From NCBI GenBank assembly GCA_050613775.1, contig JBODTK010000015.1, positions 496,001-560,000 of the forward strand: a DNA stretch of 64,000 nucleotides, in the 5' to 3' direction. Shown here in pieces: positions 95-55,847 of this stretch. The stretch comes from Neocallimastix sp. 'constans' (lineage: Eukaryota). Numbering within the stretch: the stretch's first letter is position 1; each line of letters begins with the position of its first letter. Position numbers and translations under genes: made by a program. A model generated the notes under the pieces. It was not told the DNA's origin and did not search any database. It saw nothing but the letters and a program-made list of their open reading frames with translations.

Positions 95-3000
95 TTATAC
101 TATTGGAACTAAATATGGCTTAACGTTTTTAATATGAATATTTCTTTCTAATTGCTTATGTGTGTCCACAGTTTCTAGCACTAAAGTATTGAACTTCGAA
201 GCTTTAAGTAGTCGAAAAGGACCAATAAAGAAGGGATCTAATTTTTTTCTTCCGATATATCTTACTAAAACTAGATCTCCTGGTTTGTATTCTTGTTGTG
301 TACTGTTTGAGGCCTGTATACGTTGTAGCCAGTATGAATGAGCTTGTTGAATATTTGCAATAGCTTCTTGAACCCAAGCTTGATGTCGTATAAATCTTCT
401 TGCGTTATACTCAATTTCTGATTCGTCTGGAGCTCTTACAATGTCTGGAATTACTACACTTAGTGGCCATAAGTCTTGCCTTCCATAAAGTAGTTCAAAA
501 CTTGAGAATCCTGTAACGCTGGACTTAGAAGTTCGCAAGGCCCAGAGAACGGCTGGAAGATATTCATCCCATTTTGTTTGGTCCTTACAAAGATGTCGTA
601 ATATTTTAACTTTTTCACGGTTACGGTTTTCAATTTGGCCATTGGCTTCCGGATGATGAGGAGCAACAAAACGAACCCAAGCACCATAAAGATCAATCAT
701 AGCCTTAGTTACATCAGAAGAAAATTGAGATCCATTGTTCGTAATTATAACTTCTGGCACTCCATGTCTAGCAAAAATGTCTTTAAGGAAGTTTATAACA
801 TCAGTACTTTTAATATGCTGTAATGGAGAGGCTTCTTCCCATTTTGTTGTGTAGTCCACTAAAACAATAAGGTATTGATTACCAGAGCGAGTAATTGGTA
901 AAGGACCTACAATATCTAGTCCTACCCTAATAAAAGGTCTTTCTACAGGGGAAACATTATTAGATAAGTTCTTTGTAATTGGTTTGGGACGAAAATATTG
1001 GCATTCCAGGCAAGTTTTTACCACTTGATTCAAATCGTTCCACATTCCTGGCCAGTAAAATGATTCTTTGAGTCGAGCTAGTGTTTTTTCGACGCCTTCA
1101 TGCCCCACAAGATGTGCCTTTTGAATCAAAGAAAATTTCTTTTTATCATCCTCTATAACTTGAAGAAGTTTTCCTTGGTCATTCCTATAAACTAATTTAT
1201 TATCAATAAACGAGTAATTATTTTTTATGTAATCTGAAATAGGCTTAGGAGTATATTCCAAAGATGAAGAAAGAATAGCAGAAATAGAATTAATTTCAGG
1301 AAGGTTACTAGAAGGTAATCTGGACAAAGCATCTGCGAAAATATTGTTTTTACCTTTTTCATAAATTAATTCTACTTTGAATTCGTTAAAAAGGGAAATC
1401 CAACGGATATGGTGATCACTTATTGGAATGCTTTATTTAAAATAACCAATTAATGGTTTATGGTCGGTGAAAAGTTTAACAGTGAAAGGGGAAGCTGAGA
1501 TATAAGGCCTGAATTTCTTTAAAGCAAATATGATAGCACAGCCTTCCTTTTCAGTAACTGAATAGTGGCGTTCGGCTTCCTTGAGAGTGCGATTTACACA
1601 ATAAACCGGGTGTTCTGTATTAGAATTAGCTGGAACTTGAAGCAAAACGGCTCCAGTAGGGTAGGTGGAGGCATCTGTACGAAATTATAAAAGGATTTTT
1701 ACAATTTGAATAACTGAGTATAGGATTAAAGCATAAAGCGTTTTTCAATTTAAGATAGTTTTCATTGTGTTCTATAGTCCATATAAAAGACGATTTTGGA
1801 CTAGTTAACTTGTATAAGTTGTCAGAAAGGCTTGCAAAATTAGGTATAAACTTTCTATAATAGCCTACTAGACCTAAAAATGATCGTAATTGATTAACAT
1901 TAGCTGGAGGTTTCCATGATTTTATAGCTTGTATTTTATCTGGAACCGGTTTTAAACCTTCGCTAGTTAAGATGTGACCAAGAACTTCAACAGATTTGCT
2001 ACAAAATTTGCACTTATCAATGTTGACAGATAGATGAGCTTTTCTCAGTAATAAAAATAGTTTTTTAAGATCCATAATATGTTGTTCAAACGTGGGAGAA
2101 TATACCAAAATATCATCTATGTAAACAAATAGACATTTACCAATTTAGGGCATCAGTATTCTGTTCATCTCCCGCTGAAAAGTAGCAGGAGCATTAGTAA
2201 GTCCGAAGGGCATCACGTTGAACTGGTAGTTTCCGAACTTTGTAGTGAAAGAGGTTTTTTCCTTGTCCTTTGGGTTAACAGGGATTTAATAATATCCTGA
2301 GAAGAGATCAAGAGCGGAGAAAAATCTTGCTCCATGAACTGATTCAAGAAGTTCGTCGATAAATGACAGTGCGTAGGCATCTTTAATTGTCATATCATTT
2401 AGGCGTCGGTAATCGACGCATAATCTCCACATCCCATTTTTTTTCTTAACTGGAATGACCGGAAACGACCATGGAGAATGGGATGGTTCGATAAAACCAT
2501 ACTTTATTAGCTTGATAATTTCTTCTTTCAAAGCATTCGATTTTTCCAACAAAATTTTATATGGACGTAATTTAATAGGATTCGAGTTTGTAAGTTCGAT
2601 GGAATGAGGTTCCACCTTAGCGATTGAGACTTTTTCAATGGAGTCTACCAAAACATCATCAAATTCCTTTAACAAATTATTAAAAGTACTAGTTTCTTCG
2701 TTGGCGAGGTCTTCCAAATTAGAGATTTTTCGTTTATAGTTCCTAATAGAAATAGTAAAGATGCTTTTAACAGAATTTAGAAACGGAACAGGGTTAGCAA
2801 CACAAATTGGTTTATTATCAGTTTTCTTATATAGAGCATCATCGTCAGGGTCAATATAAAGCCTATGTTCTTTTTGTGAAGTTCTTCCCAAAATAATATC
2901 GTAACAGGAATCCTTGTCATCAAGAATCCAGAATTTGGAAGTGATATTAGTATTCTTAAAGGAAAGGCAAAGGTCTACTGTTGAATTAGAACGTATTACC

Positions 3001-4010
3001 GTATTTGAAGCAAGTTTAAAGAAAGTCTCTTCATTCTTCTTAGATTGGTTTTGGGAGGAGATTTTCTTAAAAAATGATTTATTAATTACATTAACATTGG
3101 ATCCTGTATCAATTAAAACTTTAACTGGAATATCTTTTATTTTACTCATTACAGAAGCAATATTCGATTTTTGAATAATATTAATGTTATTTTTTAAGTT
3201 TGAATGAGGAGAATTATTCAAATCAAGCGATTCCAGTTCTTCATGATAAACTCTATTACGGTGATTTGTGGTAGACTTTTCTAAAGATTCATTGTCAATT
3301 TTACATTCATTAAAGTTATATATTGAATTAATTTTTCTAATGTAATTAGGATTTAATTTTAATCTTTTAATACAAAGTCTACGTAAAAGAGGACTGACAG
3401 AGAATAATTGACCAAAGGTTATTCTTGCATTTGTATTGTTCAATGAATCGAAAAGATCATACTCGTTAGTATCTTTGAGCATATTTGTTGCCCTTAGATA
3501 ATCATAAAAGTTTGTTTTATCATTAGTTTTAGAATTTTTATTTTCAGTTGAGATGTTCTTGTCATATTGAATATCGCTTTCCAAACGATTTTTATTTCTT
3601 ATTTCTTTATTAATTTTTTTTGCAGATCTAATATTTTTGTTAGCAATAAAAGAGGTATCTAATATTTCCAGATTATCAGTATTATTACTTGGTGTAGGAA
3701 GATTATTTCTAAAATTATTATCGATTTTAGAATTATTAGATTCTTGTTTGTTCTTTTATAAAAGAGCTTTAGTTTTAATTGGAATTGGATTGTCTTTTAA
3801 TTTAAATTTCTTATTTGTTTGATTAGAAGAAGTATTACTATTTACTTCAAGGGTTTTTCGTTTAATATCATTTAAATCAAATTTTAAATGTTTTTGATTA
3901 GGAATTATGTATGATTCTTTATTAGAATTTGGAAATTTAGGTTTGTAATATTTATTATCAATTTTATTACAAGATTTGGAAGATTGAGAACTTCCCTGAA
4001 TTAATTTAAA
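95..4010 (-). pseudogene. pol: Gypsy-1 pol (aspartic protease, RT, RNase H, integrase), broken by stops and frameshifts
   Basis: LIDTGSNVN protease; WRLCVDYRRLN, LDLFSGYY, MPFGL and FVYIDD RT motifs; TDHKPL RNase H; HHCC zinc finger, LDIVGPLP and GPF integrase motifs, spread over ORFs 2286-3584, 1626-2108, 1433-1645 and 95-1327. Confidence 0.95.
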
Positions 4011-4882
4011 TTATTTTGTATATGAGTGAATTTATCCAGGAGATTCTTATTATGTTCAGAGAGTTTATTAGTACAGATATGAGCTTCATGACCTTTTTTT
4101 GAACAATGATGACAAACATGCAAGGACATGTTTGCAAATTTTTTGGTAAGTTTATCCAGGTCAGAATTATATTTTTGATTTGAAGATTCACTAGTATTGA
4201 TATGCCTATTATCTATGTTCTTTGTAGATGATTTACTAGGATTTTTTTTATTGTAACATTGTTTATTAAAGCTATTCTTCTTTAAATATTTAGAGTTAGA
4301 ATTACTATTTTGATTGGAATATTCTCCTTCATCTTCATAAACTTGAATTCTTGAATCAATTCTTAATGCAAATTTCATTGCTTGTTTTAGTGAGTCATAC
4401 TTTTTTGCTATCATAACGGAATAAAGATTACGCTTTTCTTTTAATCCTTTAATATAAAGAACAATTAATCTAGACTCAAAAGGTTTATCTTTATCCTTAA
4501 TTTCGTTAAGAAGGTCATTAAAATGAAGGTTAAAAATTCTAACATTTTTTTTCCAATTTTTGTATGTTCCAACTTTTCAGAACTAAAAGAGGATATTTTA
4601 TCTGTTTCAATTATTTCTTCAACTCTATTATTGAATTCTTCGGCTGTCATTGACTTCTCTTCAAAGTATAATTCTTCACACAATTCATGTGTAGTATCGA
4701 CAGTAGTAGACAACATTATCCTTTTCTTTTCCTTTTCTGAAAGAGTAAAGTCTTCAAAGATGTCTAAAAGATCTCTTTTTCATTTGAAATACTTAAGCTT
4801 TTTTAGAACCTAAAGCAGTTATGTCTCTTGCCATTTTCGAGACTTTTTCATAGTCAGTTTTACCACTATCTTCAGAAGTCAT
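4001..4882 (-). pseudogene. gag: Gypsy-1 gag with CCHC zinc knuckle, frameshifted
   Basis: ATG at 4882 downstream of the PBS and leader; CHHCSKKGHEAHIC knuckle in ORF 4001-4414; lies upstream of pol. Confidence 0.85.
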
Positions 4883-5686
4883 ATTGAAAAAAAAATAGAA
4901 ATAAAAAGAAAATAAAGTAACACGGTAGAACACTACAAGTTAGAAAATAACACCGTAGAATACTACAAGTTGAATATCACACAAGTTGAAAATCACACAA
5001 GTAGAATATTACACAAGTAGAATGAAAGTTTCCTATGAAACTATAGAGAGAAGTAGGCAAAGGTAGAACTTTCCTCCACCGTAGAACGAGTTCTCCACCA
5101 CTTGATAACTATTTAGTAGTTATCGTTTGAATAATAATACTTCTTAAAATTATTATTATTTGAACTTATTATTATTATTTATTTATAAAAATATTTTATT
5201 TTTAATATTTTTATTAAGAATAAATTTTTAATAATCGTTACATTTTTATTAAGTACATTTTTCTCTCTTTTATATTTAATAATTAAAATAAAGTAATATT
5301 TGTTTGCAAAAATAAACTATTTAATATATTTAAGCATAATTCTTATATTTTAATTAATAGTATTGAATATATATAAAAATAATTTAGTTAATTATACAAA
5401 AAAATAATAATTAAAATAATTATTGAATATATAGTAATAATTAAAAGAAATATTAAATATATTTCTTTTATAATAAATAATATAAAAGTTATTAATATAA
5501 TATAATAATTTAAAATAAAAATAAAAATAATTTAGAAAATTAACTATTTATAATTATAATAATTTACTAAAAATATTTAATATTAATTTTTAATTTAATT
5601 TAATTAATTATATTATTCTAATTAATTTAAGTAATTTTAGTAATTTAATTAATTTAATTAATTTATAATAATTTATTATTATTAAT

Positions 5687-8318
5687 TGATATAAAATGAA
5701 AATAAAAACTTTAATTATTAATAAATTATTTTATTAATAATTACATAAAAATAAATCAATTAATCACTTGATTAATTATCATATGATTTATAAAATGATC
5801 CAGAAATAACGTGATATAAGATAAATTTATGTAATATCATAAATTCTCTAAAAATACATAAAATTAATGTAAACATAAAATTTATAACATAAATTTTATG
5901 TTATGTAAATATGTAAATAATTTATAAATTAATTAAGTTTTATTTTATTTCATTTTAATTATTTTTATTATATTTTTATTATATTTTTATATGTTCTAAT
6001 TATTATAATATTTTATTATTTATACTTTTTAATTCTTATTATTTTAAAATAGTTTATAATTAAAGAGTATTATATAAAGAATACTTTTTCTTTATATTTA
6101 TTCTTTGTAATTTTGCAGTTTTGCAAATTGCCATTCATGCAATTCAAATAGTTAAAATTATAATAATAAATTGCCAAAATAAAAATATTTTATTAGTAAA
6201 ATTAATTTAGTAATATTTAATATGAAGTTATAAAAATTATTAGTTATTTAAATAAATTTAAATTATAAAATAAATAAATAAATATTTAATAAATAAGTAA
6301 ATAAAAATATATTAAATTAATAAATTTCATAAATAAATTATATAACTTCTCCCAGTAAGAGAGTGAACCAAGGTGTACTTTATCAAATGGTGGAGATATC
6401 GGTTCTCTTTGGAGGGGAAGAAGTTATAATTATTTTACAATAATTATTAAAAAAAAAATAATAATATAAAAAAAAAAAAATAAAAATAAAAATATATTAT
6501 TTCTAAATTTCTTAAAAACATATTTCAATAATTTAAAAATTAATTTTAAAAATTAGTTTTATTAAATTTTTTTTTAGTATTTTATATATAAATATATCAT
6601 ATATATATTTATATAATTTATAACAAAATTGATTAAATAGTATTATATATAAATATATTGTAAAATATATTTATATAATTTTATTAAAAGAATTGATTAT
6701 ATTTTATTATATATATAAATATATTGTAATATATATTTATATTTATTAAAAAAAAAAAAAAATTTTTTTTTAGTTAATTTTAATAATTATTTTATTTTTT
6801 TTTAACTCTAATAATGATAATTATTTTATAAATTAGTAATTATCTTTTATATTTTAATTAAAATAGTTATATATATAAAATGAATAATAATTCAGGGAGA
6901 AGGATAACTCCCTATAACCAAACCAATAATAATAATAATAATAAAGAAGAAATCCTCAAAAAGTATTTAAAGAATATTATAAAAGAAAATTACCCCCATA
7001 AACAATATTTTGAAGCAAAAGAGATTCCTAATATTCTCAAAGTAATTATAAAGAAAGAAATAATTGAAATTGAAGGTTTGGAGGATGAAGATTCAGTAGA
7101 AATGTTAATTAAACTTTACGAATCGGAGCTCCAAGATATATCCTTATCAGATATGTGTGACTCAATTTTATTTTTCATTCCAGAAGAAAAGCAAGATTTT
7201 ATTTTTCAAAATTTTAATAACCAAAACTTTAAGGATCAAGGTTGTAACACTAAAAATTATAACAATCAAAATTTTCATAATCAAAACTTTAATAATAAAA
7301 ATTTTATTAATCAAAATTTTTATAATCAAAATTTTATTAATCAAAATTTTTATAATCAAAATTTTATTAATCAAAATTTTTATAATCAAAATTTTTATAA
7401 TAAAAATTTTAACAATCAAAATTTTATTAACCAAAAATTTTATAATCAAAATTTTAATAATCAAAATTTTTATAATTTTAATTTTAATAATTCGGATTTC
7501 AATAATAATTTCAATAATAATTTCAATTATAATTTCAATAATTTTAGTGATAATAACTATAATAATCCTAAAAATAATCAGAACAATTATATCGGAATTA
7601 ATCAAGATAATAAAATTAATAATGGAAATAGTAATATTAAAAATAACAAGGAAATTAATAGCAACGAAGAATTTAAAAATGAAATTAAAATTATTAAGAA
7701 TAAAATTAATAAAAATAATAAAGTTAAGGAAGAAATTTTAAATAAAAATAGTATTAATAACATTAAGACTGTTATTAATAAATCTAATATTATTAATAAT
7801 ATTGAAAAGGTACAGGAGATTAAAATAAATAGCATAAATACGGATCTGAATAAAAATCACAATATGATTAATGAGAAAAATATGGTTAATAAAAATAATA
7901 ATACTAATGAATTGAAATACAACAAAATTAATATTGATAATAATAATATTAAAGATAATGAAATTATTAAAACTAGTAATAGTTATAATTCTGAAAATAG
8001 CAAGAGTAAAAAGCCTAAATTGCAAAACAATAAAATTATTATTGATTATAATTCTATTAAAGATAATGAAATTATTAAAATTAACAGTAAAAATAATTTC
8101 GAAAATAACAATAATAAAAAGCAAAATTTGAAAAACAATAAAATTAATATTAATGACAATAATATTTCCGATACTAAAAATTTAAACAATAAATTAAAAA
8201 TATTATGGGTATTGAAAAATTATAAATATCGGAGAAAATTATTATTGTTAGTAACAAAAAAAAAAAAAAAAAAAAAAAAAAATTTATTATTGTTATTAAA
8301 TTAAAATTATTTTTAACA

Positions 8319-8364
<46 letters not shown>

Positions 8365-8413
8365 TTTTTCAATTATTAATTTCTAATATATTCAAATTTA
8401 ACTATTGAACTCC

Positions 8414-8470
<57 letters not shown>

Positions 8471-9240
8471 CTATAAAAACATAAAAATATAATAAAATTC
8501 AACTCTACAACTATACCATAGTTGTAATTTAAGGAGGGACGTATGATATAAAATGAAAATAAAAACTTTAATTATTAATAAATTATTTTATTAATAATTA
8601 CATAAAAATAAATCAATTAATCACTTGATTAATTATCATATGATTTATAAAATGATCCAGAAATAACGTGATATAAGATAAATTTATGTAATATCATAAA
8701 TTCTCTAAAAATACATAAAATTAATGTAAACATAAAATTTATAACATAAATTTTATGTTATGTAAATATGTAAATAATTTATAAATTAATTAAGTTTTAT
8801 TTTATTTCATTTTAATTATTTTTATTATATTTTTATTATATTTTTATATGTTCTAATTATTATAATATTTTATTATTTATACTTTTTAATTCTTATTATT
8901 TTAAAATAGTTTATAATTAAAGAGTATTATATAAAGAATACTTTTTCTTTATATTTATTCTTTGTAATTTTGCAGTTTTGCAAATTGCCATTCATGCAAT
9001 TCAAATAGTTAAAATTATAATAATAAATTGCCAAAATAAAAATATTTTATTAGTAAAATTAATTTAGTAATATTTAATATGAAGTTATAAAAATTATTAG
9101 TTATTTAAATAAATTTAAATTATAAAATAAATAAATAAATATTTAATAAATAAGTAAATAAAATTATATTATATTAATAATTCATAAATAAATTATATAA
9201 CTTCTCCCAGTAAGAGAGTGAACCAAGGTGTACTTTATCA
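5687..9240 (+). mobile_element. Non-autonomous gypsy-type LTR element (LARD/TRIM-like) with no pol, inserted in the Gypsy-1 5' LTR
   Basis: Near-identical LTRs 5687-6385 and 8544-9240 (TGATAT..TTATCA); PBS TGGTGGAGATATCGG at 6388; PPT AAGGAGGGAC at 8531-8540; 4-bp TSD TAAT on both sides. Confidence 0.95.
6880..8304 (+). CDS. Orphan 474-aa ORF inside the non-autonomous element: about 110-aa complex N-terminus, NQNFY/NQNFI/NQNFN pentapeptide repeats, Asn-rich tail ending in a poly(A)-derived Lys run
   Basis: ATG-initiated, sense to the element, about 500 nt after the PBS. Long open frame in DNA where stop codons are frequent. No recognisable gag or pol motif. Confidence 0.5.
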   Translation: MNNNSGRRITPYNQTNNNNNNKEEILKKYLKNIIKENYPHKQYFEAKEIPNILKVIIKKEIIEIEGLEDEDSVEMLIKLYESELQDISLSDMCDSILFFIPEEKQDFIFQNFNNQNFKDQGCNTKNYNNQNFHNQNFNNKNFINQNFYNQNFINQNFYNQNFINQNFYNQNFYNKNFNNQNFINQKFYNQNFNNQNFYNFNFNNSDFNNNFNNNFNYNFNNFSDNNYNNPKNNQNNYIGINQDNKINNGNSNIKNNKEINSNEEFKNEIKIIKNKINKNNKVKEEILNKNSINNIKTVINKSNIINNIEKVQEIKINSINTDLNKNHNMINEKNMVNKNNNTNELKYNKINIDNNNIKDNEIIKTSNSYNSENSKSKKPKLQNNKIIIDYNSIKDNEIIKINSKNNFENNNNKKQNLKNNKININDNNISDTKNLNNKLKILWVLKNYKYRRKLLLLVTKKKKKKKKNLLLLLN

Positions 9241-9278
9241 TAATATTTATAGTTTAATTTATTATTATTTATCAGCAT

Positions 9279-10917
9279 TGATTTATACCGGACATTCTTA
9301 AAATACAAAAATTAGATTTTGTAGAAGTGAATAAAGGTATAAATACTAAGAAAAATTTAAGAAGTTTAAAATAAATATGTTTTATTAGAACACAAAATTT
9401 GTTTTATTATTAAAAAAAATAGTTTTATTTTAATATTAATTTTTATTTATTTAATTATTAATTTTTATTTAAATTAATAAAAGAAAAATAATTATTAAAA
9501 CTAATAAAATAATAAAATAAAATATTTATTATTTATAATAATTTATTTAAATTTTAATAATAAAAATTTGATTATTAACAACTAATAGACTATATAAAAT
9601 AATTTATCAAGTTTGTTAATAATCATAATTTGATTATTAATAAACTAATAATATATATAAAATCATTTATTGAAATTATTAATAATTATAATTTGATTAT
9701 TAATAAACTAATAAAATATATAAAATAAGTTATTGAAGTTATTAATAATAAAGAATAATTTAAAAGAAATATTTATATGCTTTTATATTTTTCAATGATT
9801 TTAAACTATTTACATTTATAAACAATAAATAAATAATTGTTATAAATATTTACAAATAAAGTATTAAAATAAACAAGTTTTAATTATAATTTGTTTATAA
9901 AAGTTGAGTTATAAAATAAATAAAATATTAATTATTTTAAATAAAAGGTAATTTAAAGATTATTCAGCTATTTAATTTTAATTTTGAAATATTTATAAAT
10001 TTGTTTATTTAGTATTAACAATTTATTAAATTTGTTTATTATTATGTTTGTTTATAATTTTATAAGAATATTAATTATTAATTTATTTAAGTTTTAATTA
10101 AAATTTTTAATGATTAATTAAATTATTATTATTTTATTTTCATGTATTTCTTTTAATTAATTTTCTTAATTTGATTTCGGGACTTCTAAAAGAATTAATT
10201 TTGGGTTAAGTTAAATGAGAATTGTTGAGTTGGTACTTAGATTAAAGGGTAAACTTGGTTGGAAGCCTTTAATCTAATTACCTTATGGATATTATTTTAT
10301 TTTATAAATTAATTTATTCAAATTTTAAAAATATATTATTTTATTATTAAACTTTTAATTAACTATATTTTATTTAATATATTTTATTATAAAGTTATCA
10401 GATTATTAATAAATAATAATCTTACAAAGATTTAAAAAAGAATATTTTTTTGTTCTTTTATATTTTTGAAAAACAATATAAAATATTTAATAATATATTT
10501 TAATAAATACTAATTTAGAGATAACAATATAAAATATAATTTTAATATATAAAATAATAATATATAATATAAGATAATAAAATATATAAGATAATATAAT
10601 TAATAAAAAAAACAATTCTTATAAATAATATTCAACTATATTAATTAATATAAAAAAGGGATAATATTAATATGTAATACAATATTAATCAATTAATATA
10701 TTAGTTATTCAATAATGTATAAAAGGGATAATATTAATTAATTTGTAATACAATATTAATAAGGTTATGAACGGTACAAGGATTTAAGGAGTATAAATTA
10801 TATTTTTAAATAAATTATTACTTTTGTAGTAATGAATATAAATTAATTTGTATCAAATCCTTGACAAGAATTTATTATTTATTATTTATTTTAATTTTAT
10901 AATTTCATTATTTATCA
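9279..10917. mobile_element. Solo LTR (about 1.64 kb), same family as the 29050-30032 and 32084-33118 LTRs but in inverted orientation
   Basis: TGATTTATACC..TTATTTATCA termini; 4-bp TSD GCAT (9275-9278, 10918-10921); both ends match the reverse complement of the 29-33 kb repeats. Confidence 0.85.
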
Positions 10918-12543: not shown

Positions 12544-14874
12544 CGTAACAGCATCGTTACACCTTGGTTATCGTTACTAAATGGTGCCTACCTTGCCTTA
12601 CATACTAAATATCACTGATTCGAATCTTTTCTTTTATCTTTTGGAATAAAATATTTATTTAGTTATTAATTTTTTATTCATTTAATTTTATAATAATATT
12701 TATTTAAATAATTATCATGTATTCATTTAATTATAAACCAATCATGTAGTTTAATTATAAACTTTCTTAATATAAAATATAAAAATCATGTATTATTATT
12801 TTATTTTGACTCTTTGAGTCGATGTTAACAAAGTAACGTATCTTAAAATTAATATTAAATAAAAAATAATATAAAACCATAATTATGAAAATATTAAACA
12901 AAGATAATTTAGTGTAATAACAAATAATAAAATCTCACATAAAGTAGTTTGTTTATAGTTAACACATCTACAATGACCTAGTGAGATAAAATAAATAACA
13001 AAATCGTTACAATATCGACTCCCGTTGGAAACACACTCGCTACCTTGTGGTAGATGTGTTAATCCACCCAACATACCACTAACCTTTCATTATTTTATTT
13101 ATATTCAAAAGTTTTAATAATATTTTAGATAAATTTACTCTTGCTGTGGACTCTATTACTTCTGTTACTTCCTGAATCCTGATTGGTGATCTCTGATAAA
13201 AATAATTATGGTTTATAAAGTTTATGAAATTATCTACCTGAACAAGCATCCATCCATCAAGTTTTGTATCTGTTATCCATCTATCAAATGGAACCCCGAT
13301 TTTCATCAAACCAAGTGTGCATCCATCAAGAGGATCAAGTTACCCACCATATGAAAAACTTTAATTTAAAATAACGCTCCAGAATATCGAATAAACTCAC
13401 TACCGGTACAGGCTACAACTAATGCGCAACTCACCCTAATCTAATCCATGGAATACATCTTTTGTTTTTCCTATTCTTCTACTATTCTAATATCTCTAGC
13501 TTCCGTATTCATGGATATCTCTTTTATTATTCTGTTTTTAATTCTACTAATCTTCTTCGAGTTGGTGTTAGATTAGATCGTCTGGTATCCGATCGTAGAG
13601 GCGAAAATATACTTTTATATAATTTAATTTGGTCTGAATATGTTTTTTCATTTTTATTCTTGTTTAAATAAGCAAAATCATTGAACTGAATTTCTATATC
13701 TTCAATTTTATTATTATAATAATAATTATTTATTTCCTTCTTAATGATTGAAACACTAGTACCATCTGAAATGATATGGTGCATATTAATTAGTAAAATT
13801 TCATTTTTGATGAATCCTACTCTTATTAAAGGACTTATTGATAAATCGAATGGACGAATAAATGACTTTGCATTTTCATAATCATTCAAAATTTAATTTA
13901 CAATTATCATCAATATATCCATAAATACTGGTATTTCCATTAATTTCTTTTGTATAATATTTAGTTTTTAATATTTCATGCTTATTAAATATTTTAGTAA
14001 TTGAAGTTTTAATTTTTTGAATATTAATATCATTTTTTAAAGAATATTGGAATATTATAAACAATACTTTTAGGATTCTTAATTGAATCAATGTACATTC
14101 CTAATTGTTGTGAAGTAACAGGAAATTCCTTATTTCCACATTTTTCAATAATTTCAATTTTCTTTTCATTATTCTTATCATTCAATAATTTTTCTATGTA
14201 TTCACTTAATTCATAAACAATTGGTTTTGATAAAATATCTCTAATATTTAATTTTAATTTATATTATACAATATTAAAGCTACTAAAACTATCACCACCA
14301 ATATCGATAAAGCCTGAATTCCTTCCTATTATATGTTTAGAAATATTCAATGAATCACTAAAGATCGAACATATTTCTTTTTCAATTAATGTTTTTGGAG
14401 GGGATTGTAACGATATCAGCATCGTTATACCTTGGTTATCGTTACTAAATGGTGCCTACCTTGCCTTACATACTAAATGTCACTGATTCGAATCTTTTCT
14501 TTTATCTTTTGGAATAAAATATTTATTTAGTTATTAATTCTTTTATTCATTTAATTTTATAATAATATTTATTTAAATAATTATCATGTATTCATTTAAT
14601 TCTAAACCAATCATGTAGTTTATAAACTTTCTGAATATAAAAATATAAAAATCGTATTATTATTTTATTTTGACTCTTTGAGACGATATTAACAAAGTAA
14701 TGTATCTTAAAATTAATATTAAATAAAAAATAATATAAAACCATAATTATGAAAATATTAAATAAGATAATTTAGTGTAATAACAAATAATAAAATCTCA
14801 CATATAGTAGTTTGTTTATAGATAACACATCTACAATGACCTAGTGAGATAAAATAAATAACAAAATCGTTACA
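12544..14874 (+). mobile_element. Non-autonomous TGTAAC..TTACA LTR element (candidate Tf1/sushi-type self-primer) enclosing an NRPS fragment
   Basis: Two similar LTRs of about 470 bp (12544-13011, 14406-14874); ATATCGACTC directly after LTR1; leader 13012-~13603 shared in part with the 46-47 kb copy; GGAGGGGAT PPT-like tract directly before LTR2. No clean TSD. Confidence 0.8.
13604..14404 (-). pseudogene. NRPS fragment: thiolation (PCP) domain plus N-terminal half of a condensation domain, with stops and frameshifts
   Basis: Manual translation gives PPKTLIEKEICSIF..FIDIGGDSFS (phosphopantetheine GGDS motif), FPVTSQQLGMY..YNIP, HEILKTKY, RPFDLSISPLIR and the condensation core HHIISDG. Confidence 0.9.
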
Positions 14875-16406
14875 ATAACGCATTTAGAAATTCAGCAAAA
14901 ACACTCATGTATTGGGCTAAATTATCGGAAAACTTCTGGAATTTCACAATAAAGCATGCTTTTATTTATATGATTCCACATTCAGGAAATAATATTTTAA
15001 TTCCTGATGAAGTATTTTATAATAAAAAAGTAAATATAAAACAAAGAACCTTTGGATGCACTTGCTACTTCAGAGATCAAACCCCACACAAATTTAAATT
15101 TAAACCAAATTCAAGGAAAGGTATTTTCCTTGGTTTTGATAAGAAATATTCATATATTATTATGGACAAAGAAAATAGAAAATTAAATTATGTTAATGAA
15201 TGCATTGAAGAAGAATAGGGAAATTTTGAATATCCAAATAACGGTTTTCAAGGCCCTTATTTCTCCTTTACTATAATGGACTTTGATGAGAGAAACATTA
15301 AAAATAGAAATTTAAATGACGATAATAATTATGATGACAATAATCATTTAAATGAAAATATTAATTTAAATTAGAACTATATTTTAAACATATAATAATT
15401 TAAACATAGATAATAACATAAATGAAAATAATAATTTGAACGATAATTTAAATGAAAACGTAAATGTAAATTTAATTGACAATAATAATTTTATCGAAAA
15501 TAACAACATTTATGGAGAAGAAATTAACCTATCAAAGGAAAATAATATTGTAGGAAAAGATAATTTAAATAAAAATAATTCAAATAAAGAAATTAATTCA
15601 AATGAAATTGGAAATTCCAATGAAATAGAATTTTTACTCAAAAATAATATCAAAATTAACAATAATAAAATTAATACCGTTTTAAAAGATAATACATTTT
15701 TAAATGGAAGTATTAATAATCATAATTCTCAGAAAAATACCTTACTTAATATTCCTGTTAGTTACAAAAATTTTATTGATAATACGACTAAAAATTTTGG
15801 ATTGAAATATAAAAATGGTACAAATTTACACGATAAAAAACTCCCAATAAATCCTGGTGTTATAAATATTCCTTCGATTAAAAATAAAGGTAAAGGAAAA
15901 ATCATTGAAAATGACGAAAATTTCAATTTTGATGAAAGTGAAAAAAGTTTTAATAAAAATTTTTCAAAAATTGAATCAAAATTTTCTAAAAAGCTATTGG
16001 TCAAAATAAAATCATCAGAACCTAATTCATCAAATAATAATATAAATAATATTTTAAATTATTATTTATCAATTTTACCTGATAAATTTTACATAAATCT
16101 TCATCTGAACATTTAAATAATTATAAAACACATGATCATAATAATAATATTAATGATAGGCATAAAATTATTGAAATTTCTAATAAAACTATGGATAATA
16201 AAAATTTGTTAGAAACAAAAATACAAAGCTTTAATTAAAGGAGTAATGTTATAAATATTAATATATTAGTGTAAGATATGTGACCAAAAATAATAATAAG
16301 CCACATATTATGTTTACTATAAATACAATAAAAAAGTACAAAGTTATGTATATACATTATTCTTTATTCTTATTATATAATAAAAAAGAGATTCCTACTT
16401 TTCACA
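14875..16406 (+). mobile_element. Copia remnant: integrase C-terminal fragment, Asn-rich linker, pol C-terminus and a 160-bp LTR (16247-16406)
   Basis: FW..TFGCTCYF..KFKPNSRKGIFLGF integrase/SH3-like segment; LLETKIQSFN* resembles the pol end LLTKIQEY* at about 21580; AAAGGAGTAA then TGTT..CACA. Confidence 0.7.
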
Positions 16407-28513: not shown

Positions 28514-29049
28514 TGTAATGCGCTGGTCACTTATAGCAATAGGCAACACTGGAAAATTAATAATAAGTTAAAATGTTTTTTTAAAAAATTTTGTTTTATT
28601 AATTTATTAAAATAAAATTTATTAAAGTAATTATTTATTAATTAATTAACTAATTTTGTAATATATCAAATTACTTATTATTAATTGATTAATTAATAAA
28701 AGCACGAATTAAAAATATTTCTTTTGTGAAAATTTAACTCATATTTATACTTTTTACGGAAAAACAGTTTGTATGATTTTCAAAAATTTTAGAATCTTAG
28801 AAAAATCGTTTAAAACTGATTTTCTCTGTTAATTTAGAAACTAATGGAAGAAAGGATAAAATAAAATAAAAAATTCAATTTAATTATTAAGAATTTCTAT
28901 GAAATTCTTAAAGAAAATACAGAAAGAATTAACTAGAACAATGAAAATAAAATTTTCAAAAAGTAAGTTTAAGTGTGAATCAAACTTGAGTAGTTCTATT
29001 CATGACTATAGCTCTAACAAATATACCAAGATTTCCTTTTACAAATTGT

Positions 29050-30032
29050 TGATAAATAATAAAATTATTAAATTAAAATAAATAATAAAGAACAAATTCT
29101 TGTTAAAGTTTTCTAGCTTAATCCAAAAATTAATCCATTCTAAAAAAAATTAAATCCATATTAAAGAAAATTTAATTAAATAAAAATAATTAAAATAAAA
29201 TAATAATAAATTAATTAATCATTAGTAATTTTAATTAAAAAATAAAATAAATTAATAAATAATATTTTTCTAAAACTACAAATAAACAAAATAATAAACA
29301 AATTTAATAAATTATAAATAACAAATAAACAAACTTATAAACATCTCAAAATTAAAATTAACTAGTTAAATAATTTTTAAGTTACTTTTATTTAAAATAA
29401 TGATTACTTTATTTATTTTATAACTCAACTTTTATAAACAAATTGTAATTAAAATAACATTTTAAAACTCATCTTTATTAATATTTTAATTGTAAATATT
29501 GTTTAATTTAATAATAAATTATTCTTTATTTCTCTTTTATTAATTTTATTATTTTTAATGTAAATAGTTTAAAATCAAAGAAAAATATAAAAACATGTAA
29601 ATATTTCTTATAAATTATTCTTTATTATTAATTATTTAATAAATTATTATAGATATTTTATTAGTTTTTAATAATCAATTTTTCATGATTATTAATTATT
29701 TTGATAAATTATTATATATTTTATTAGTTATTAATAATCAATTTTATTATTAAAATTTAAAATAAATTAGTATAAATAATAAATATTTCATTTTATTATT
29801 TTATTAGTTTTAACAATTATTTTATTAATTTAAACAAAATTAATTATTAAATAAATAAAGATTAATATTAAAATAAAAATAAATTTTTTTAATAAAACAT
29901 TTTTGTATTTAATAATAAAACATATTTATTTTTTTTTTCAAATTTCTTAAATCAATTTTATTCAGTATTTATCCTTTTATTCACTTCTACAAAATTTAAT
30001 TTTTGTAGATTAAGAATATTAGGTATAAATCA
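29050..30032. repeat. LTR-like direct repeat, copy 1 (about 980 bp), flanked by TTGT on both sides
   Basis: TGATAAAT..TAAATCA termini; highly similar to 32084-33118; inverted homologue of 9279-10917. Confidence 0.85.
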
Positions 30033-32083
30033 TTGTTTGTGTATGAAATCATAATTATTCAATAATGAATAATTAATATTTCTTATAATGTTAAGATAAT
30101 AACTGAATTTCAATTCAATTTCAATTTCGATAATTCAGTTATTTGAATTTCAATATTAATAAATAATAATAATATAATAATTATTATTAAATTAACTTTA
30201 TTAAAATATTTAGGAATTAGTCTAGGCCAACTAATTACTAAATATTATTAACATATTGAAATTAATATATATTAAATAATATAAACACGTGATTGTCATT
30301 AAACTAATTTCTACATAATATATTTTAATTATAAAATATAATATTTAGCTATATTAGATTCTTATATTTTATTTATATTAAATATTTATATTATTATCTT
30401 ATTTTATATTATCAATATCAAACTTTTATTAATGCTATTGCATATTCATATTAATAATTAATATTTTAATAATTAATTATTTTATATAAATACATGTTTA
30501 AATCTTTTGATTAATCCTTTGTAGGATTATTGTAATTTAAATTATAGTAATAATTATATAAAATACTAATGTAATAAAATATTATTAAGATTAAATAAAA
30601 TTTATATTTTAAATAAAAAACTTATTCATAAAATTTACTAATAACAATATGTTTTAAATAAGTGTAAATTTAAGTTATATATTAATAAATTACTATAATT
30701 TGGCATCTTGACCTAATCGTTAAGACCAAATTATTACAAAACTTTGACATATAATTAATGAAAAATAATTAATAATTTATAATTATTTATAAAATAATAA
30801 TTGTTTTTAAAAAATAATTATTTAAATAATAATTAATATATTCATTGATTTTAACTTATAAATTTATTTAATAGTTATATTTTCATATATTGATCTAAAT
30901 TTATTTACATATTATAATTTATACATTTATATAAATAATATAAAATTTATTTACATATTATTATTATTATTAATATTAATATTAAATTATTAATTATTAT
31001 TATTTAACAAAACTTATGGATAATCTGATAGTATACCCTGTCTGACGTGCAGTTTGCCTCTTCACGACGTACCACGGCTACTGTATTCAATATAAAATAC
31101 AGCAGTCCAGAGCCTACTAGCCCAATTACTATGTAGGTTAAACTTAGCCCGGAAATCTATATCCAAGTATTTGTTAAATAATTTAATTAATAAATAATAT
31201 TAAATTTTATTTTTCTAATATTCCCCGATATCTCCATCATAAATTATGCTATGGTTCGGGTTTTATTAGAATTTTTATTTAATTATTTATTTTTAATATT
31301 TTTCTGTCTACATTTTAATTATTGAAAAACTTCACTTATTTATACTTTTTGAAAAAAAAATAAATAAGTAAAGCCTTTCTACATTTTATTATCATATTTA
31401 AAAAAAATAATTTACTATTACTAATTACTTTAAATTTTATATTAATTTAAATAAACTAATTCATAAGTATTTTTATTTTAATAAATTTTGTTTATATAAT
31501 TTTATATTATTTTTCATATACTAAAACTAAATTATTTAATATAGGCAAAGAAACAAACAAAATTTAAAAAGATTTTACAGAAAAATAAAGTTATTTTAAT
31601 CAAGAATGTTAATATAATATTCTGATATTTTATATAAAATAAATTTAAAAACTATAATATATTTAATATTTATTATTAATCAATTAATATTTGATTTTAT
31701 TTGTGGGGAATAAAAATAATCAATTTAAAAATAAAATAAAATACTATAAAGAATACAAGTTTAATATTGATACAATATAATAATAATATAATAATATATT
31801 TGAATAAAAATAAAATATTAATATTGATAATAAACACTTTAATAAAATAATAAAATTTAAGGCTAAATTATAGATATTGATATTAATAATAAAAATATAG
31901 AATTATTGATAATATATAAGAAACTTTTAATAAAAATATAAAAAAAAAATATATATATATTTATAAAATAATTTAATATAGAAAATATAGTAAAGTAAAA
32001 TTAAGTAAAGAACAATATAATGAATTCTAAAATAAGTTGAAATTCTAATTAATAATCCATTATATGTTCGTTCTTTACCATGT

Positions 32084-33118
32084 TGATAAATAACAAAATT
32101 ATTAAATTAAAATAAATAATAAAGAACAAATTCTTGTCTAACTTAACCCAAAAATTAATCCATTCTAAAAAAAATTAAATCCATATTTAAGAAAATTTAA
32201 TTAAATAAAAATAATTAAAATAAAATAATAATAAATTAATTAATCATTAATAATTTTAATTAAAAACTAAAATAAATTAATAAATAATATTTTTTTAAAA
32301 CTACAAATAAACAAAATAATAAACAAATTTAATAAATTATAAATAACAAATAAACAAACTTATAAACATCTCAAAATTAAAATTAAATAGTTAAATAATT
32401 TTTAAGTTACTCTTATTTAAAATAATGATTATTTTATTTATTTTATAACTCAACTTTTATAAACAAATTGTAATTAAAATAACATTTTAAAACTCATCTT
32501 TATTAACATTTTAATTGTAAATATTGTTTAATTTAATAATAAATTATTCTTTATTTCTCTTTTATTAATTTTATTATTTTTAATGTAAATAGTTTAAAAT
32601 CAAAGAAAAATATAAAAACATGTAAATATTTCTTATAAATTATTCTTTATTATTAATTATTTAATAAATTATTATAGATATTTTATTAGTTCTAATAATC
32701 AAAAAGTATGATTATTAATTATTTAATAAAATTATTATAGATTTTTTATTAGTTTCAATAATCAAAAAGTATGATTATTAATTATTTAATAAATTATTAT
32801 ATATATTTTATTAGTTATTAATAATCAATTTTATTATTAAAATTTAAAATAAATTAGTATAAATAATAAATATTTCATTTTATTATTTTATTAGTTTTAA
32901 CAATTATTTTATTAATTTAAACAAAATTAATTATTAAATAAATAAAGATTAATATTAAAATAAAAATAAATTTTTTTTTTATAAAACATTTTTGTGTTTA
33001 ATAATAAAACATATTTATTTTTTTTAAATTTCTTAAATCTATTTTATTCAGTATTTATCCTCGTATTCACTTCTACAAAATTTAATTTTTGTAGATTAAG
33101 AATATCAGGTATAAATCA
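32084..33118. repeat. LTR-like direct repeat, copy 2 (about 1035 bp)
   Basis: Same termini as copy 1; preceded by TTCTTTACCA (decayed minus-strand PBS TGGTAAAGAAC) and followed by TTGT. Confidence 0.85.
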
Positions 33119-35439
33119 TTGTAACAGATACATGGTAACTTCAAGCTTATCCAATGATAGTTCTTTGGTTACGTAACGTATCTCTAAACAGCTAGCAATT
33201 TCGGCTAATCAAATAAAATCTTTTGTTAATTTCGTGCATTAAATTTTATTATTTTATAATTAATTATATAGTTAAATACTTAGTTAAATATATTTTATTT
33301 AGTGATTAGTAAACTAAGTTAAATTGAATTTTTTACCAATCATAATATTATTGACATGTATAAATAATAATTGAACTTGTAACTGTAATGCACTAGCGTT
33401 ACTATTAACGTAAATTGTTGTTATAAATATTAATATTAATAAATAAAATATAATTATTAAATAAAAATATATTACTCAGTGTAAGCCCAGTAACTGATAA
33501 CGAATAGAGTTATAAAGTGCTGCGCTATATTCTAGTGTAATAGAAAATAATAATTATAAAATTTAATTAATTTAGTGTTTATTATTAACAACTCGAATAG
33601 AGAGGTGTTAAGTTATCTTAGCCTTTAAATTTAATTGTTATTCGTTATTTTAGTTAATAATAAACTTACCTTTTACACAAATTTTTGGTAAAGAATGAAT
33701 TAATAACCTTTATTTTATTATTAATAATTCTTTACTAAATTGTACTTTCCTATATTCTTGATAACCTAAACTTAATAATAAAATTTAATTTATTTTGATA
33801 TAAATTAATTTTAACTTGTAAATAATGTAAATCAATTTTAATTAATTACTTTATTGTTATATTATTAAATATATGTATATATTAAAATACAATTGTAAAC
33901 ATTAAAATTATACTTTTAAGATACTAAATTATTAAAACTATTAATTAAATATTATTATAAAAATTATTATAAAATTATTAAAATTATTAATTAATTATTA
34001 TTATAAAAATTATAAACTATTAATATTAAAAAATTATTAAAATTATTATAAAAATTTATTTATTATAACTATTAAATATTATTATAAAATTATTAAGATT
34101 ATTAACTAAATTTATTATTAAAAATTAAAAATTATTAATTATTATAAAAATTTATTATTTAAATATTATCAAATTTATTAATTAAATATTATAAAAATTT
34201 TATTTTATTTTGAAAATAATTACAAGTATTATTTAAAATAATTAAAGATTATTAAATTTATTATATTAATATTTAAAAACAATTTATTTAACTTAAAAAT
34301 ATCAAAGAAAATAGTAAAAACTATTTTCTATATATTTATTTTATAATGATTTTTAATTAAATTATATTTGAATATTATATTATTATATTTATAAAAATTA
34401 AAACAAAAATGAATTATTGATATAAAATTAATTCAATAATTCTATAAAATTACTTAAATTATAAACAAATAATTATACTTTAAATTCATAAAAAAATATA
34501 AATATTGTAAATATTTCTTAAAAATTAAATATTTGTACTTTAAAAAAAAATAAATTTTAATATTAATAAATAATAAATAAATTTTAATAAAAAGAAAATT
34601 TTTTTTATTTAAAATTAAAGCAGGGTAATACCCGTCCCCCTGCTTGATTTTAATTCTATACGTGTCAACCCAGAGTCTACCATTTTTGTGTAATAATTCT
34701 ATTAAGAACTTACTCAAAATAGAATTATTGACTACAACTTAACGACTAATTCATTAAGTTGAGAAAATAAAATAAAATAAATTTTTTACCTATAGAGTTT
34801 ATTATAAAATTAATTATAATAATAACATGAGAAGTAAAAGAAGAATTATTTGTATAAATTTGATTTTAAAATATGTTTTTTGAATAAAATATTTTATTAA
34901 TTTATTAAAATTAAAAATATAAAATTGTTACTAATATAACTATGTTTTTATAATAATAACTCTTGATTTCTCAAAGAGAACTCAAGAGCCTTATTTATAT
35001 TTTTTTATGAAAATAAGGTTAAATAAGAAAGGGTTTTCTAATCTTAAAAAATCTCTTATCTAGGAAAAGATTAGATAGAAAAACCTAGATAAGTTTTCGA
35101 TCGATATTCTATCCATATCGATCATCGCATTAATTAAGTAAAACAGATTACTTCTAAAAAGTAATTGGAAAAAATCTTAATTAACCGATTTTCCAATCTA
35201 ATCTAATGATCGAGAATAAAAGAATAAAATAATAAAAGATATTTCGATCATATAATTTATCCTTATATTAAAAATATAAAATTAAATAGTTAATAAAATA
35301 CAGAATACATTATAAAATACAGAATACAATACAAAATACATTAGTTACAGTAGAGAATTTAGCATATTGTAAATATATTAATTAAAATTAATTAAATAAA
35401 TTTTGTTAAATTAATGAATATTTAAAATTAAATTAAATC

Positions 35440-37600: not shown

Positions 37601-39051
37601 TGATATGAAATAGGAATTTATCTTGTTTCCCATTTCATAACTATTATGATTTTTATACTTGTCCATAACAAGTCTTTATATATTTAAATAATAACACTTA
37701 AATAAAAATATTTAATTCATTTTTAAATAAAATATTGTTTTATTAATATTCTAATATTTATAGGTAATTAGTAAACCTTTAATACAATTCTTTTATAACA
37801 TAATTCTAATAATCAAAATATAAAATTAATCAATATTAATTCTAATAATCAAAATATAAAATTAATCAATATTAATTCTAATAATCAAAATATAAAATTA
37901 ATCAATATTAATTCTAATAATCAAAATATAAAATTAATCAATATTAATTCTAATAATCAAAATATAAAATTAATCAATATTAATTCTAATAATCAAAATA
38001 TAAAATTAATCAATATTAATTCTAATAATCAAAATATAAAATTAATCAATATTAATTCTAATAATCAAAATATAAAATTAATCAATATTAATTCTAATAA
38101 TCAAAATATAAAATTAATCAATATTAATTCTAATAATCAAAATATAAAATTAATCAATATTAATTCTAATAATCAAAATATAAAATTAATCAATATTAAT
38201 TCTAATAATCAAAATATAAAATTAATCAATATTAATTCTAATAATCAAAATATAAAATTAATCAATATTAATTCTAATAATCAAAATATAAAATTAATCA
38301 ATATTAATTCTAATAATCAAAATATAAAATTAATCAATATTAATTCTAATAATCAAAATATAAAATTAATCAATATTAATTCTAATAATCAAAATATAAA
38401 ATTAATCAATATTAATTCTAATAATCAAAATATAAAATTAATCAATATTAATTCTAATAATCAAAATATAAAATTAATCAATATTAATTCTAATAATCAA
38501 AATATAAAATTAATCAATATTAATTCTAATAATCAAAATATAAAATTAATCAATATTAATTCTAATAATCAAAATATAAAATTAATCAATATTAATTCTA
38601 ATAATCAAAATATAAAATTAATCAATATTAATTCTAATAATCAAAATATAAAATTAATCAATATTCTAATTTTATTTAAAATATTATATACTAATTTTAC
38701 TGGATAATTAGGAACATTTATTAAAATATTATTTCTAATAACTATTTATACTAATTCTTCATTTTAAAGTTATGTTTATAAACAATTATTTATAAAATTA
38801 TTTAACTATTTAATATTTATAATATATTTATTTCTTATTTTTCTTAACTTTATTTATATTAATTATTAATTAAATATTTCGTTTCTTATCAATATCTCCA
38901 CCCTTTAAGACATAACTTCGTCCCTGAAGTTATTAAAAGAAAAAAAATTATTAAATAAGAACGAAATATTCTTGATTTCAGGTTCATATCTAGTTGTTAT
39001 TCACAATTTCAGTAGCAATGTTCAGAATTGTTTATACGAAGGTTTTCTTTT

Positions 39052-39096
<45 letters not shown>

Positions 39097-39679
39097 AAAC
39101 TAGAGAGAATTTTTATACTTCCCCTCCCTCCTTAGGAAAAAGCCCTGATAGCCGAGCTTTGGATTCTCCACCATTGATATGAAATAGGAATTTATCTTGT
39201 TTCCCATTTCATAACTATTATGATTTTTATACTTGTCCATAACAAGTCTTTATATATTTAAATAATAACACTTAAATAAAAATATTTAATTCATTTTTAA
39301 ATAAAATATTGTTTTATTAATATTCTAATATTTATAGGTAATTAGTAAACCTTTAATACAATTCTTTTATAACATGATTCTAATAATCAAAATATAAAAT
39401 TAATCAATATTAATTCTAATAATCAAAATATAAAATTAATCAATATTAATTCTAATTTAATTTAAAATATTATATACTAATTTTACTGGATAATTAGGAA
39501 CATTTATTAAAATATTATTTCTAATAACTATTTATACTAATTCTTCATTTTAAAGTTATGTTTATAAACAATTATTTATAAATTATTTAACTATTTAATA
39601 TTTATAATATATTTATTTCTTATTTTTCTTATTAACTTTATTTATATTAATTATTAATTAAATATTTCGTTTCTTATCA
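37601..39679 (-). mobile_element. TRIM-like miniature gypsy-type element inserted in the Copia-C 3' LTR
   Basis: 5' LTR 39175-39679, 3' LTR 37601-38891; 283-bp non-coding interior; PBS TGGTGGAGAATCC from 39173; PPT AAAGGGTGGAGATAT; 4-bp TSD AATA. Confidence 0.93.
37801..38664. repeat. Minisatellite, 24 copies of the 36-bp unit TAATTCTAATAATCAAAATATAAAATTAATCAATAT
   Basis: Printed lines repeat every 180 nt (5 units); 864 bp = 24 apparently identical units. Confidence 0.97.
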
Positions 39680-46260: not shown

Positions 46261-47522
46261 TGTAACGATTTTAATGATTTATTTTATCTCACTAGGTCAT
46301 TGTAGATGTGTTCACTGATAAACAAACTACTAAATGTGAGAATTTATTATTTATTATTACACTAAATTATTTTATTATTTAATATTTTCATAATTATGGT
46401 TTTATATTATTTTTTATTTAATATTAATATTAAGATATGTTATTTTGTTAATATCGACTCAAAGAGTCAAAATAAAATAATAATACATGATTTTTATATT
46501 CAAAAAGTTTATAATTAAAATACATGATTGGTTTAGAATTATATGAATATATGATAATTATTTAAATAAATATTACTATTAAATAAATGAATGAAAGAAT
46601 TAATAGCTAAATAAATATTTTATTCCATGGATTAGATTAGGGTGAGTTGCGCATCAGCTGTAGCCTGTACCGGTAGTGAGTTTATTCGACATTTTGGAAC
46701 ATTATTTTAAGTTAAAGTATTTCAGATAGCTGGTAGCTTGCTCCTCTTGATGGATGCACACTTGGTTTGACGAAAATCAGGGTTCCACTTAATGAACGGA
46801 TAACACAGATACAAAGCTTGATAGATGGATGTTTGTTCAGATAGATAATTTCACAAACTTTTAAAAACCATAATTATTTTTATCAGAGATCACCAATCAG
46901 GATTCAGAAAATAAAAGAAGTAATAGAGTTCATAGCAAGAGTAAATTTATATAAAATATTATTAAAACTTTTGAATATAAATATAATAATAATGAAAGGT
47001 TAGTGGTACGTTGGAGTGGATTAACACATCTACAACAAGGTAGCGAGTGTATTTTCAACGGGAGTCGATATTGTAACTATTTTAATGATTTATTTTATCT
47101 CACTAGGTCATTGTAGATGTGTTCACTGATAAACAAACTACTAAATGTGAGAATTTATTATTTATTATTACACTAAATAATTTTATTATTTAATATTTCA
47201 TAATTATGGTTTTATATTAATTTTTATTTAATATTAATATTAAGATATGTTATTTTGTTAATATCGACTCAAAGAGTCAAAATAAAATAATAATACATGA
47301 TTTTTATATTCAAAAAGTTTATAATTAAAATACATGATTGGTTTAGAATTATATGAATATATGATAATTATTTAAATAAATATTACTATTAAATAAATGA
47401 ATGAAAGAATTAATAGCTAAATAAATATTTTATTCCAAAAGGTAATCAATAAGATTCAAACCAGTGACATTTAGTATGTAAGGCAAGGTAGGCACCATTG
47501 AGTAACGATAACCAAGATATAA
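46261..47522 (-). mobile_element. Second copy of the TGTAAC..TTACA family, internally deleted: 5' LTR 47072-~47522, leader 46628-47071, partial 3' LTR 46261-46627
   Basis: Reverse-complement match to 12544-13455; the deletion joins leader to LTR at a shared TATTCCA. Confidence 0.88.
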
Positions 47523-50395: not shown

Positions 50396-50426
<31 letters not shown>

Positions 50427-50657
50427 TAAAAAAATAAAAGTGATAATTTTACAACAGATTAAGAGTCTCAAGTGCTCTTAAGTATATGATAATATTGTAA
50501 AGGAATAATTAATTAAATGAAGTGTCAAAATAAAATAAAACTATAAAGTTTATTATATTAATTAAATAATTTAAAAGTAAAGTAATATTATAAAAATAAA
50601 GAGAATAATAATTGATAGAAATTAAAATTAAAATTTTAAAGGAAGGGAAGACTAAGA

Positions 50658-55215: not shown

Positions 55216-55847
55216 ACTTACGAGGGAGTGTTAGAAATTAAGTTTAATATTCCAGATATTTTAATATAATATGATTATTTAATAATAATTTATTTTTATA
55301 ATATTTTATAAGTTATATATAATTTAATAATAAATAAAAATTTATTAATAAGAAATAATTAAGTGAATGAAAACACGATTTAAATAAATAAAAACTTCAT
55401 GTAAACAAAAAAATTAAATGTATGAATTTAAGAAATAACGCGTGTAATAATTAAAAAAAAAAAAAAAAATAAATAAAAAAATAAAAGTGATAATTTTACA
55501 ACAGAAGTTCAGGTTCGGCTCTTTTAAGGTTTATTCTTTATTTGGGGGATATAATTTATGTTTTATAAAAATAATTTTTATTTAAATTTTATTTATTTAG
55601 AAGAATTACATTTACTTATCATTATTAAAAATTATAAACTAACATTTATTCTTAACATTTAATATTTAATTTCATATTTTGATCTCAAGAATTACACTAA
55701 TCTACTATTTTTTATTCTTGGACAAAGAAATAAAACTATTTCTAAATATTTTTCTCTTTTATAATTATTTACTATAATAAAGTTTTCCTATATTAAAGTA
55801 TAATTATTAATTTACTTTCATTTATGTTTAAATTAAATAATAAAAAT

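Follow-up and report, generated by a model that had tools for sequence, protein, structure and literature searches.

The window analysed here, i.e., the whole 64-kb stretch of DNA, carries at 12544-14874 a real, now broken and apparently single-copy NRPS fragment, which was probably captured by the non-autonomous LTR element in which it lies (hereafter element A). The arrangement read in the initial annotation, an LTR, a PBS, a leader of about 590 nt, 800 bp of antisense NRPS T-C sequence, a PPT-like tract and a second LTR, was confirmed with its coordinates; along the locus the order is 5' LTR, PBS, 590-nt leader, 797-nt antisense NRPS piece, PPT and 3' LTR. The parts of element A and its surroundings are the following.

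12544-13011, plus strand: 5' LTR of 468 nt, with first base C instead of T, a 6-nt deletion near its start and an intact U5 end (GTTACA).
12816-12825, plus strand: LTR-internal 10-mer complementary to the PBS, putative transcript start and self-primer.
13012-13021, plus strand: PBS of the self-priming type, ATATCGACTC, directly 3' of the 5' LTR and reverse complement of the LTR-internal 10-mer.
13012-13455, plus strand: element leader common to family member B, about 90% identical to it.
13456-13601, plus strand: 146-nt segment between the shared leader and the NRPS piece, characterized by its GC content and by no match elsewhere in the window.
13602-14398, minus strand: decayed NRPS fragment with a T domain, a linker and the N-terminal ~190 positions of a C domain, antisense to the element.
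14397-14405, plus strand: PPT, GGAGGGGAT, directly before the TG of the 3' LTR and with a 2-nt overlap with a conserved NRPS Pro codon.
14406-14874, plus strand: 3' LTR of 469 nt (TGTAAC...GTTACA).
14875-15218, plus strand: right flank, a Ty1/copia integrase fragment starting from the ER.N motif, the upstream half of which is absent at the left flank.
46261-47543, minus strand: element B, a member of the same family without cargo, in which LTR, PBS and leader are joined to a truncated 3' LTR.

The two LTRs of element A differ by 11 substitutions and six indels (about 936 nt compared) and are 2.4% apart from each other, against 8-9% from those of element B. The 3' LTR is bounded by TG...CA, with terminal inverted repeats of 9 nt, while the 5' LTR opens with CGTAAC, having CG for TG, and misses a hexamer near its start. 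The outer flanks, ATAT and ATAA, had already been described as an unclean TSD, and indeed match at one position out of five when the CG start is used; the match rises to 4/5 if the LTR start is moved by one base, an outcome with a chance of 0.05 per offset. Comparison of both flanks revealed no clean integrase-type TSD around the chimera. A weak likeness, in register and by eye, of the left flank to a degenerate copia integrase was discarded, as 150-258 of 300 shuffles scored as high, and closer copia relatives gave no match to this flank.

Mismatched flanks and a damaged 5' LTR start would be in keeping with a resident NRPS gene hit by two insertions, as the initial annotation had considered: at least two insertions of the family around the gene, followed by deletions or by LTR-LTR ectopic recombination, would leave an LTR and leader on the left, a PPT and LTR or a recombinant solo LTR on the right, and a gene remnant in between. 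The setting is also compatible with such a history, the window being a graveyard of transposons: 29 long ORFs were scanned and none is a host gene, their Pfam matches being in every case gypsy, copia or MULE pieces. The scenario calls, nevertheless, for no fewer than two insertions plus two or three deletions, with one deletion ending no more than 2 nt from the PPT unless the PPT itself arose by chance; the LTRs of element A are far closer to each other than to element B, and no NRPS remnant lies at either outer flank. When 23 NRPS proteins were compared with the 64 kb by tblastn, 84 of 84 matches fell on the 13602-14398 fragment, one of them overhanging into the LTR, and no NRPS sequence was detected elsewhere in the window. 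Since the NRPS piece lies between the leader and the PPT/3' LTR and the window holds no other NRPS sequence, capture is favoured over two insertions, which we regard as unlikely.

The window is very AT-rich (7-35% GC per kb); no tRNA genes were found in it and Rfam gave no match above threshold. It also hosts a near-intact copia element at 50176-55505 (plus strand), whose LTRs are 97.5% identical and whose pol ORF encodes 1224 aa, and an array of about 27 near-perfect 36-nt units at 37601-39456, with a 282-nt direct repeat on both sides (37601-37882 and 39175-39456). A non-coding AT-rich repeat of about 1 kb occurs in three copies (9276-10223, 29047-30036 and 32081-33122), 78-90% identical and one of them inverted, which are possibly the LTRs of another family.

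The motif initially noted at the PBS position is present after the 5' LTR and its nature could be refined: being complementary to a 10-mer within the LTR, it reads as a PBS of the self-priming rather than of the tRNA type. Nine of the ten positions pair in element A, with one additional G:U, and all ten pair in element B; a perfect 10-mer was never obtained in 20,000 shuffled versions of the LTR of B. In RNA folds that begin at the LTR 10-mer, the transcript start being itself putative, the 5' end of element A pairs with the PBS with a probability of 0.98-1.0 in both constructs, and the same pairing in element B reaches 0.91-1.0 when the short construct is folded, against 0.03 for the longer one. 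A minus-strand reading of the element, i.e., in the NRPS sense, was rejected, as the PBS/self-primer and the PPT fit the plus orientation only.

Self-priming of this kind is described for Tf1, where the RNA's initial 11 bases pair with the PBS (PMC7175516). Like Tf1/sushi elements as there presented, element A has a PBS adjoining the LTR that complements 10 nt inside the LTR (11 with the last base of the LTR, as in Tf1), and the two family members share with them the TG...CA ends, the purine tract at the 3' LTR and, in element B, a 5-bp TSD. Element A is therefore likely a non-autonomous LTR retrotransposon of the self-priming Ty3/gypsy (Tf1/sushi) type. The superfamily is a tentative assignment, because elements A and B, unlike Tf1/sushi, have no coding sequence, so that no RT, integrase or chromodomain is left for phylogenetic placement, and because some copia lineages (TAR) are also predicted to be self-priming (PMC6317226).

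Element B has in common with element A the LTR and 444 nt of leader, about 90% identical, and has lost its interior and PPT at a 7-nt microhomology (TGGAATA); its 5-bp TSD matches at four positions out of five. The LTRs of element B are young (0.8% apart over 366 nt) and its insertion site is directly beside a copia LTR (47618-47882). None of the other gypsy elements in the window, considered as possible autonomous partners, showed a nucleotide match to the LTR or leader of element A. One of them, a frameshifted gypsy element at 95-5243 (minus strand), has a putative LTR that also starts with TGTAACGAT, but its PBS is of the TGG type and its leader and LTR have no similarity to those of elements A and B, which makes it likely, from its sequence, a different family.

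Through element B, the element origin of the 590-nt leader described initially is demonstrated for 444 bases (13012-13455). The remaining 146 nt (13456-13601) have no match elsewhere in the window and resemble the leader in GC content, with 33% against 34% in the leader and 20% in the NRPS piece; because this value fits the leader and not the NRPS, the segment is likely further leader or the start of gag. The left junction falls at its end: homology to NRPS is lost near 13602, where the leader-like sequence is reached, and the cargo is thus joined inside the element on both sides.

At the right junction the PPT had been proposed to overlap two NRPS Pro codons. The overlap is real, but only the second Pro, in the T-domain linker, is conserved (33 of 36 NRPS modules); at the first position, 23 modules have Ala, five Lys, three Glu, three Pro and two another residue. 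The PPT therefore shares at least GG with the conserved Pro codon, and the shared stretch would be longer with an Ala or Pro codon just before it. G/purine-rich 9-mers like GGAGGGGAT occupy 65 of about 128,000 window positions (about 5e-4 per position), according to a criterion set after the tract had been seen, and GGAGGG/GGGG tracts sit before three other 3' LTRs in the window. Of the two origins initially suggested for the tract, host supply or recombination by microhomology, the second is plausible, as the Pro codon would contribute the GG, and GGAGGGGAT is most simply explained as the element's own PPT, joined to the NRPS sequence via a putative microhomology of 2-5 nt. A host-derived tract is less likely, given the Pro-Pro pair in 3/36 modules; Ser-Pro-Pro does occur at the matching position in at least one fungal NRPS module, and to that extent the tract could be host sequence, as the two-insertion history would have it.

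The cargo itself was delimited by tblastn with fungal NRPS proteins, which places the homology on the minus strand from 14398/14401 to 13602. Pfam recognized a Condensation domain (E = 1e-12) and a PP-binding domain whose score (E = 0.002) falls short of the curated cut-off; the A domain is missing and the C domain ends near position 190 of the 456 in the profile. Reading by hand against its relatives identified four indels, namely a deletion of about 15 nt that comes with a stop, the loss of one codon and two frameshifts, because of which the cargo, as it reads, codes for nothing. The shuffling of NRPS modules envisaged in the initial annotation finds no support in a piece that is antisense, starts after the A domain, ends in the middle of the C domain and carries two frameshifts and a stop.

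Named NRPS homologues of the cargo come foremost from Piromyces, Pecoramyces/Orpinomyces and Anaeromyces, which points to a host among the Neocallimastigomycota. The closest relative is P0026 of Piromyces sp. E2 (72% identity over 212 aa), and in a tree of 39 fungal and five bacterial-type modules the cargo grouped with Piromyces P0026/P0027 with a support of 100/100, a placement from which its origin in a fungal, more precisely gut-fungal, NRPS is evident. The Neocallimastigomycota are described as possessing many NRPS genes, some likely bacterial in origin (PMC8106346). The two Piromyces fragments are identical at both ends and differ in the middle, a pattern that suggests gene conversion, module recombination or an assembly chimera. 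Since P0026 and P0027 are identical over part of their length and stop early, the branch length of the cargo in the tree (0.34) is unfit as a measure of decay. Conserved columns were altered in the cargo in five cases out of 53, two of them in common with P0026, and this value is inside the range of the 39 database modules (0-28% of conserved columns changed). The indel load is likewise similar in the two compartments, with six indels in about 936 nt for the LTRs and four, counted by hand, in about 800 nt for the cargo. Decay of the cargo and divergence of the LTRs thus appear to be of similar age, and the similar indel load together with the near-normal conserved columns suggests that the cargo left a near-intact gene at about the time when the LTRs were last identical.

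Intron loss, proposed initially as a check for passage through RNA, proved uninformative, the closest NRPS genes having no space for introns: on the contigs of five close fungal relatives, 31-332 bases are to spare, and the parent NRPS was probably intronless in the cargo region, with no intron to lose.

A joining of unrelated sequences during assembly would be conceivable in a region so AT-rich and repeat-dense, but the ORFs spanning both junctions, the LTR/PBS, the leader and the right flank are present in independent JGI, ENA and Logan assemblies. The left junction ORFs were retrieved from 11, 26 and one contigs and the right one from 20, while ORFs over the 5' LTR/PBS, the leader and the right flank were found in 22 contigs each; for all these ORFs the longest JGI contig was 10,223 nt. 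An artefact is unlikely because the junction-spanning ORFs recur in 20-26 independent contigs, and an assembly chimera, largely refuted by these data, is in our estimate highly improbable. ORF look-ups matched in six cases out of ten in one round and in two out of ten in another.

The same contigs inform on copy number. Three control ORFs elsewhere in the window were found in 17-19 contigs, compared with 20-26 per element entry; contig counts are not copy numbers, and copies diverged below 90% identity would not show, but the closeness of the counts to the 22 of the unique right flank and to the control values fits one copy. The search for further copies of the junctions, recommended in the initial annotation, returned only identical or one-residue variants retaining the same frameshifts, with no divergent second copy in the protein clusters searched and no further copy sharing the junctions within the 64-kb window. 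The chimera is apparently a single dead copy. Likewise, DNA scans of metagenome, viral and MAG sequences and of related loci found no other family member or parent NRPS gene: the LTR/PBS pattern had no match in metagenome contigs; four 16-mers matched viral contigs, with no extended similarity at three of the four loci, among the matches listed; one 20-mer match in a bacterial MAG was taken as chance; and 62 loci, 28-49% identical, emerged from the related-locus scan, neither the locus of element A nor a close parent being among them.

From the position of both junctions inside the element, the sparing of its cis elements and the agreement of the two clocks we propose, with about even confidence, that the NRPS piece was captured between leader and PPT by template switching during reverse transcription and has since decayed. 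Minus-strand synthesis would have departed from the element RNA where the PPT has its 5' edge, switching via a G-rich microhomology of 2-5 nt with the Pro codon of the T-domain linker. The RT would then have copied an RNA antisense to the NRPS, generated by read-through from an oppositely oriented LTR insertion or as a natural antisense transcript, before returning to the leader, unless the template was already fused with it. Natural antisense transcripts in gut fungi have reportedly been the subject of one study. The product, LTR-leader-cargo-PPT-LTR, would have integrated into a copia integrase, after which the left border likely lost the TSD and the upstream half of copia by deletion or recombination. 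The transduction of part of an NRPS by a retroelement, put forward initially, is supported in part by the position of the cargo between the leader and the PPT/3' LTR; against it stand the missing TSD, a left flank that does not continue the copia element and the lack of a divergent second copy. Moreover, an antisense cargo needs an antisense template, while the usual model copies mRNA.

An antisense RNA would be superfluous if capture had occurred at the DNA level, a break in a genomic copy of the element having been repaired with 800 nt of ectopic NRPS sequence via microhomology (filler DNA or gap repair), with no reverse transcription of the chimera. Repair accounts for the orientation and the single copy as well as reverse transcription does, it explains the missing TSD too, and the deletion at TGGAATA in element B indicates that microhomology-mediated DNA events act on this family. 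However, the junction falls at the edge of the PPT with all cis elements spared, and the decay of the cargo equals the divergence of the LTRs, whereas an arbitrary older copy would have given LTRs older than their cargo; we consider DNA repair possible but doubtful.

Whichever the route, the outcome resembles known cases. Capture of genes by LTR elements is on record for plants, animals and yeast assays, and its reported signature is the substitution of part of a host gene for the internal ORFs, together with microsimilarity where the sequences join (PMC5131818, Tan et al. 2016); Bs1 of maize is presented as a capture of the same kind (PMC5131818, PMC13317346). As in animal LTR retroposition and Bs1, a partial host gene truncated at both ends lies between two LTRs in place of the internal ORFs, the product is non-autonomous and microsimilarity at a junction is plausible. 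Unlike in the cases described there, the cargo is antisense to the element and frameshifted, it resides in what is likely an early-diverging fungus and its junction is at the PPT; there is also no intron loss to show, the parent family appearing intronless, and no secondary copies were seen. Our best reading is that of a known process, LTR-mediated gene capture of the Bs1/Drosophila kind, with an unusual antisense cargo, PPT junction and host lineage. TRIM/Veju-type elements, as characterized in PMC13317346, are similarly short and non-coding, with LTRs, PBS and PPT around foreign internal DNA; element A differs from them for its LTRs of about 470 nt, its length of 2.3 kb and its apparently single copy. 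Among fungi, a hAT DNA transposon of Pyrenophora tritici-repentis has captured a histone H3-like sequence, present in 10-16 copies, and the same source reports TE-associated duplication of NRPS domains and discusses partial T-C modules as diversification reservoirs (PMC3538342). A fungal TE with host sequence and a partial T-C module are common to the two systems, but in that account the NRPS pieces are only near TEs, while here the T-C piece is inside an LTR element and apparently in one copy. A natural LTR capture with NRPS cargo, or in anaerobic gut fungi, was not found in the literature searched, in which subscription journals were thinly covered.

A second LTR-bracketed element in the window, at 5687-9240 (plus strand), is a cleaner capture candidate than the NRPS-bearing one. 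Its LTRs of about 697 nt are 99.4% identical and bounded by TG...CA, with a perfect 4-bp TSD (TAAT), a TGG-type PBS and a PPT-like tract, and they enclose an Asn-rich ORF of 474 aa (6880-8304) followed by long poly(A) runs (about 8256-8470). The ORF had no Pfam match and its first 130 aa no Atlas match above 0.81; this element may contain an mRNA captured not long ago or else a gag of unusual type.

Element A has kept its cis elements and the LTR ends that would define a new cDNA, namely the PBS, the PPT and, for the LTRs, the beginning of U3 in the 3' copy and the U5 terminus in the 5' copy, and could in principle be mobilised in trans by an autonomous partner. Transcription, hypothetical as it is, would yield RNA antisense to the NRPS. 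The gut fungus Pecoramyces is reported to have RNAi genes (PMC8065543), and a self-priming element that took up an antisense NRPS transcript at its PPT could also have copies elsewhere, whose LTR-transcribed antisense or small RNAs damp the parent NRPS. We deem this very unlikely; if true, gut fungi would have a mobile regulator that acts in trans on secondary metabolism. The chimera described here is one decayed, apparently single-copy fossil, and its value is that of a starting point for surveying such captures genome-wide. If the NRPS piece was indeed acquired by reverse transcription, antisense RNA can serve as a template, and the AT-rich, transposon-laden genomes of gut fungi can move pieces of biosynthetic genes by retrotransposition.
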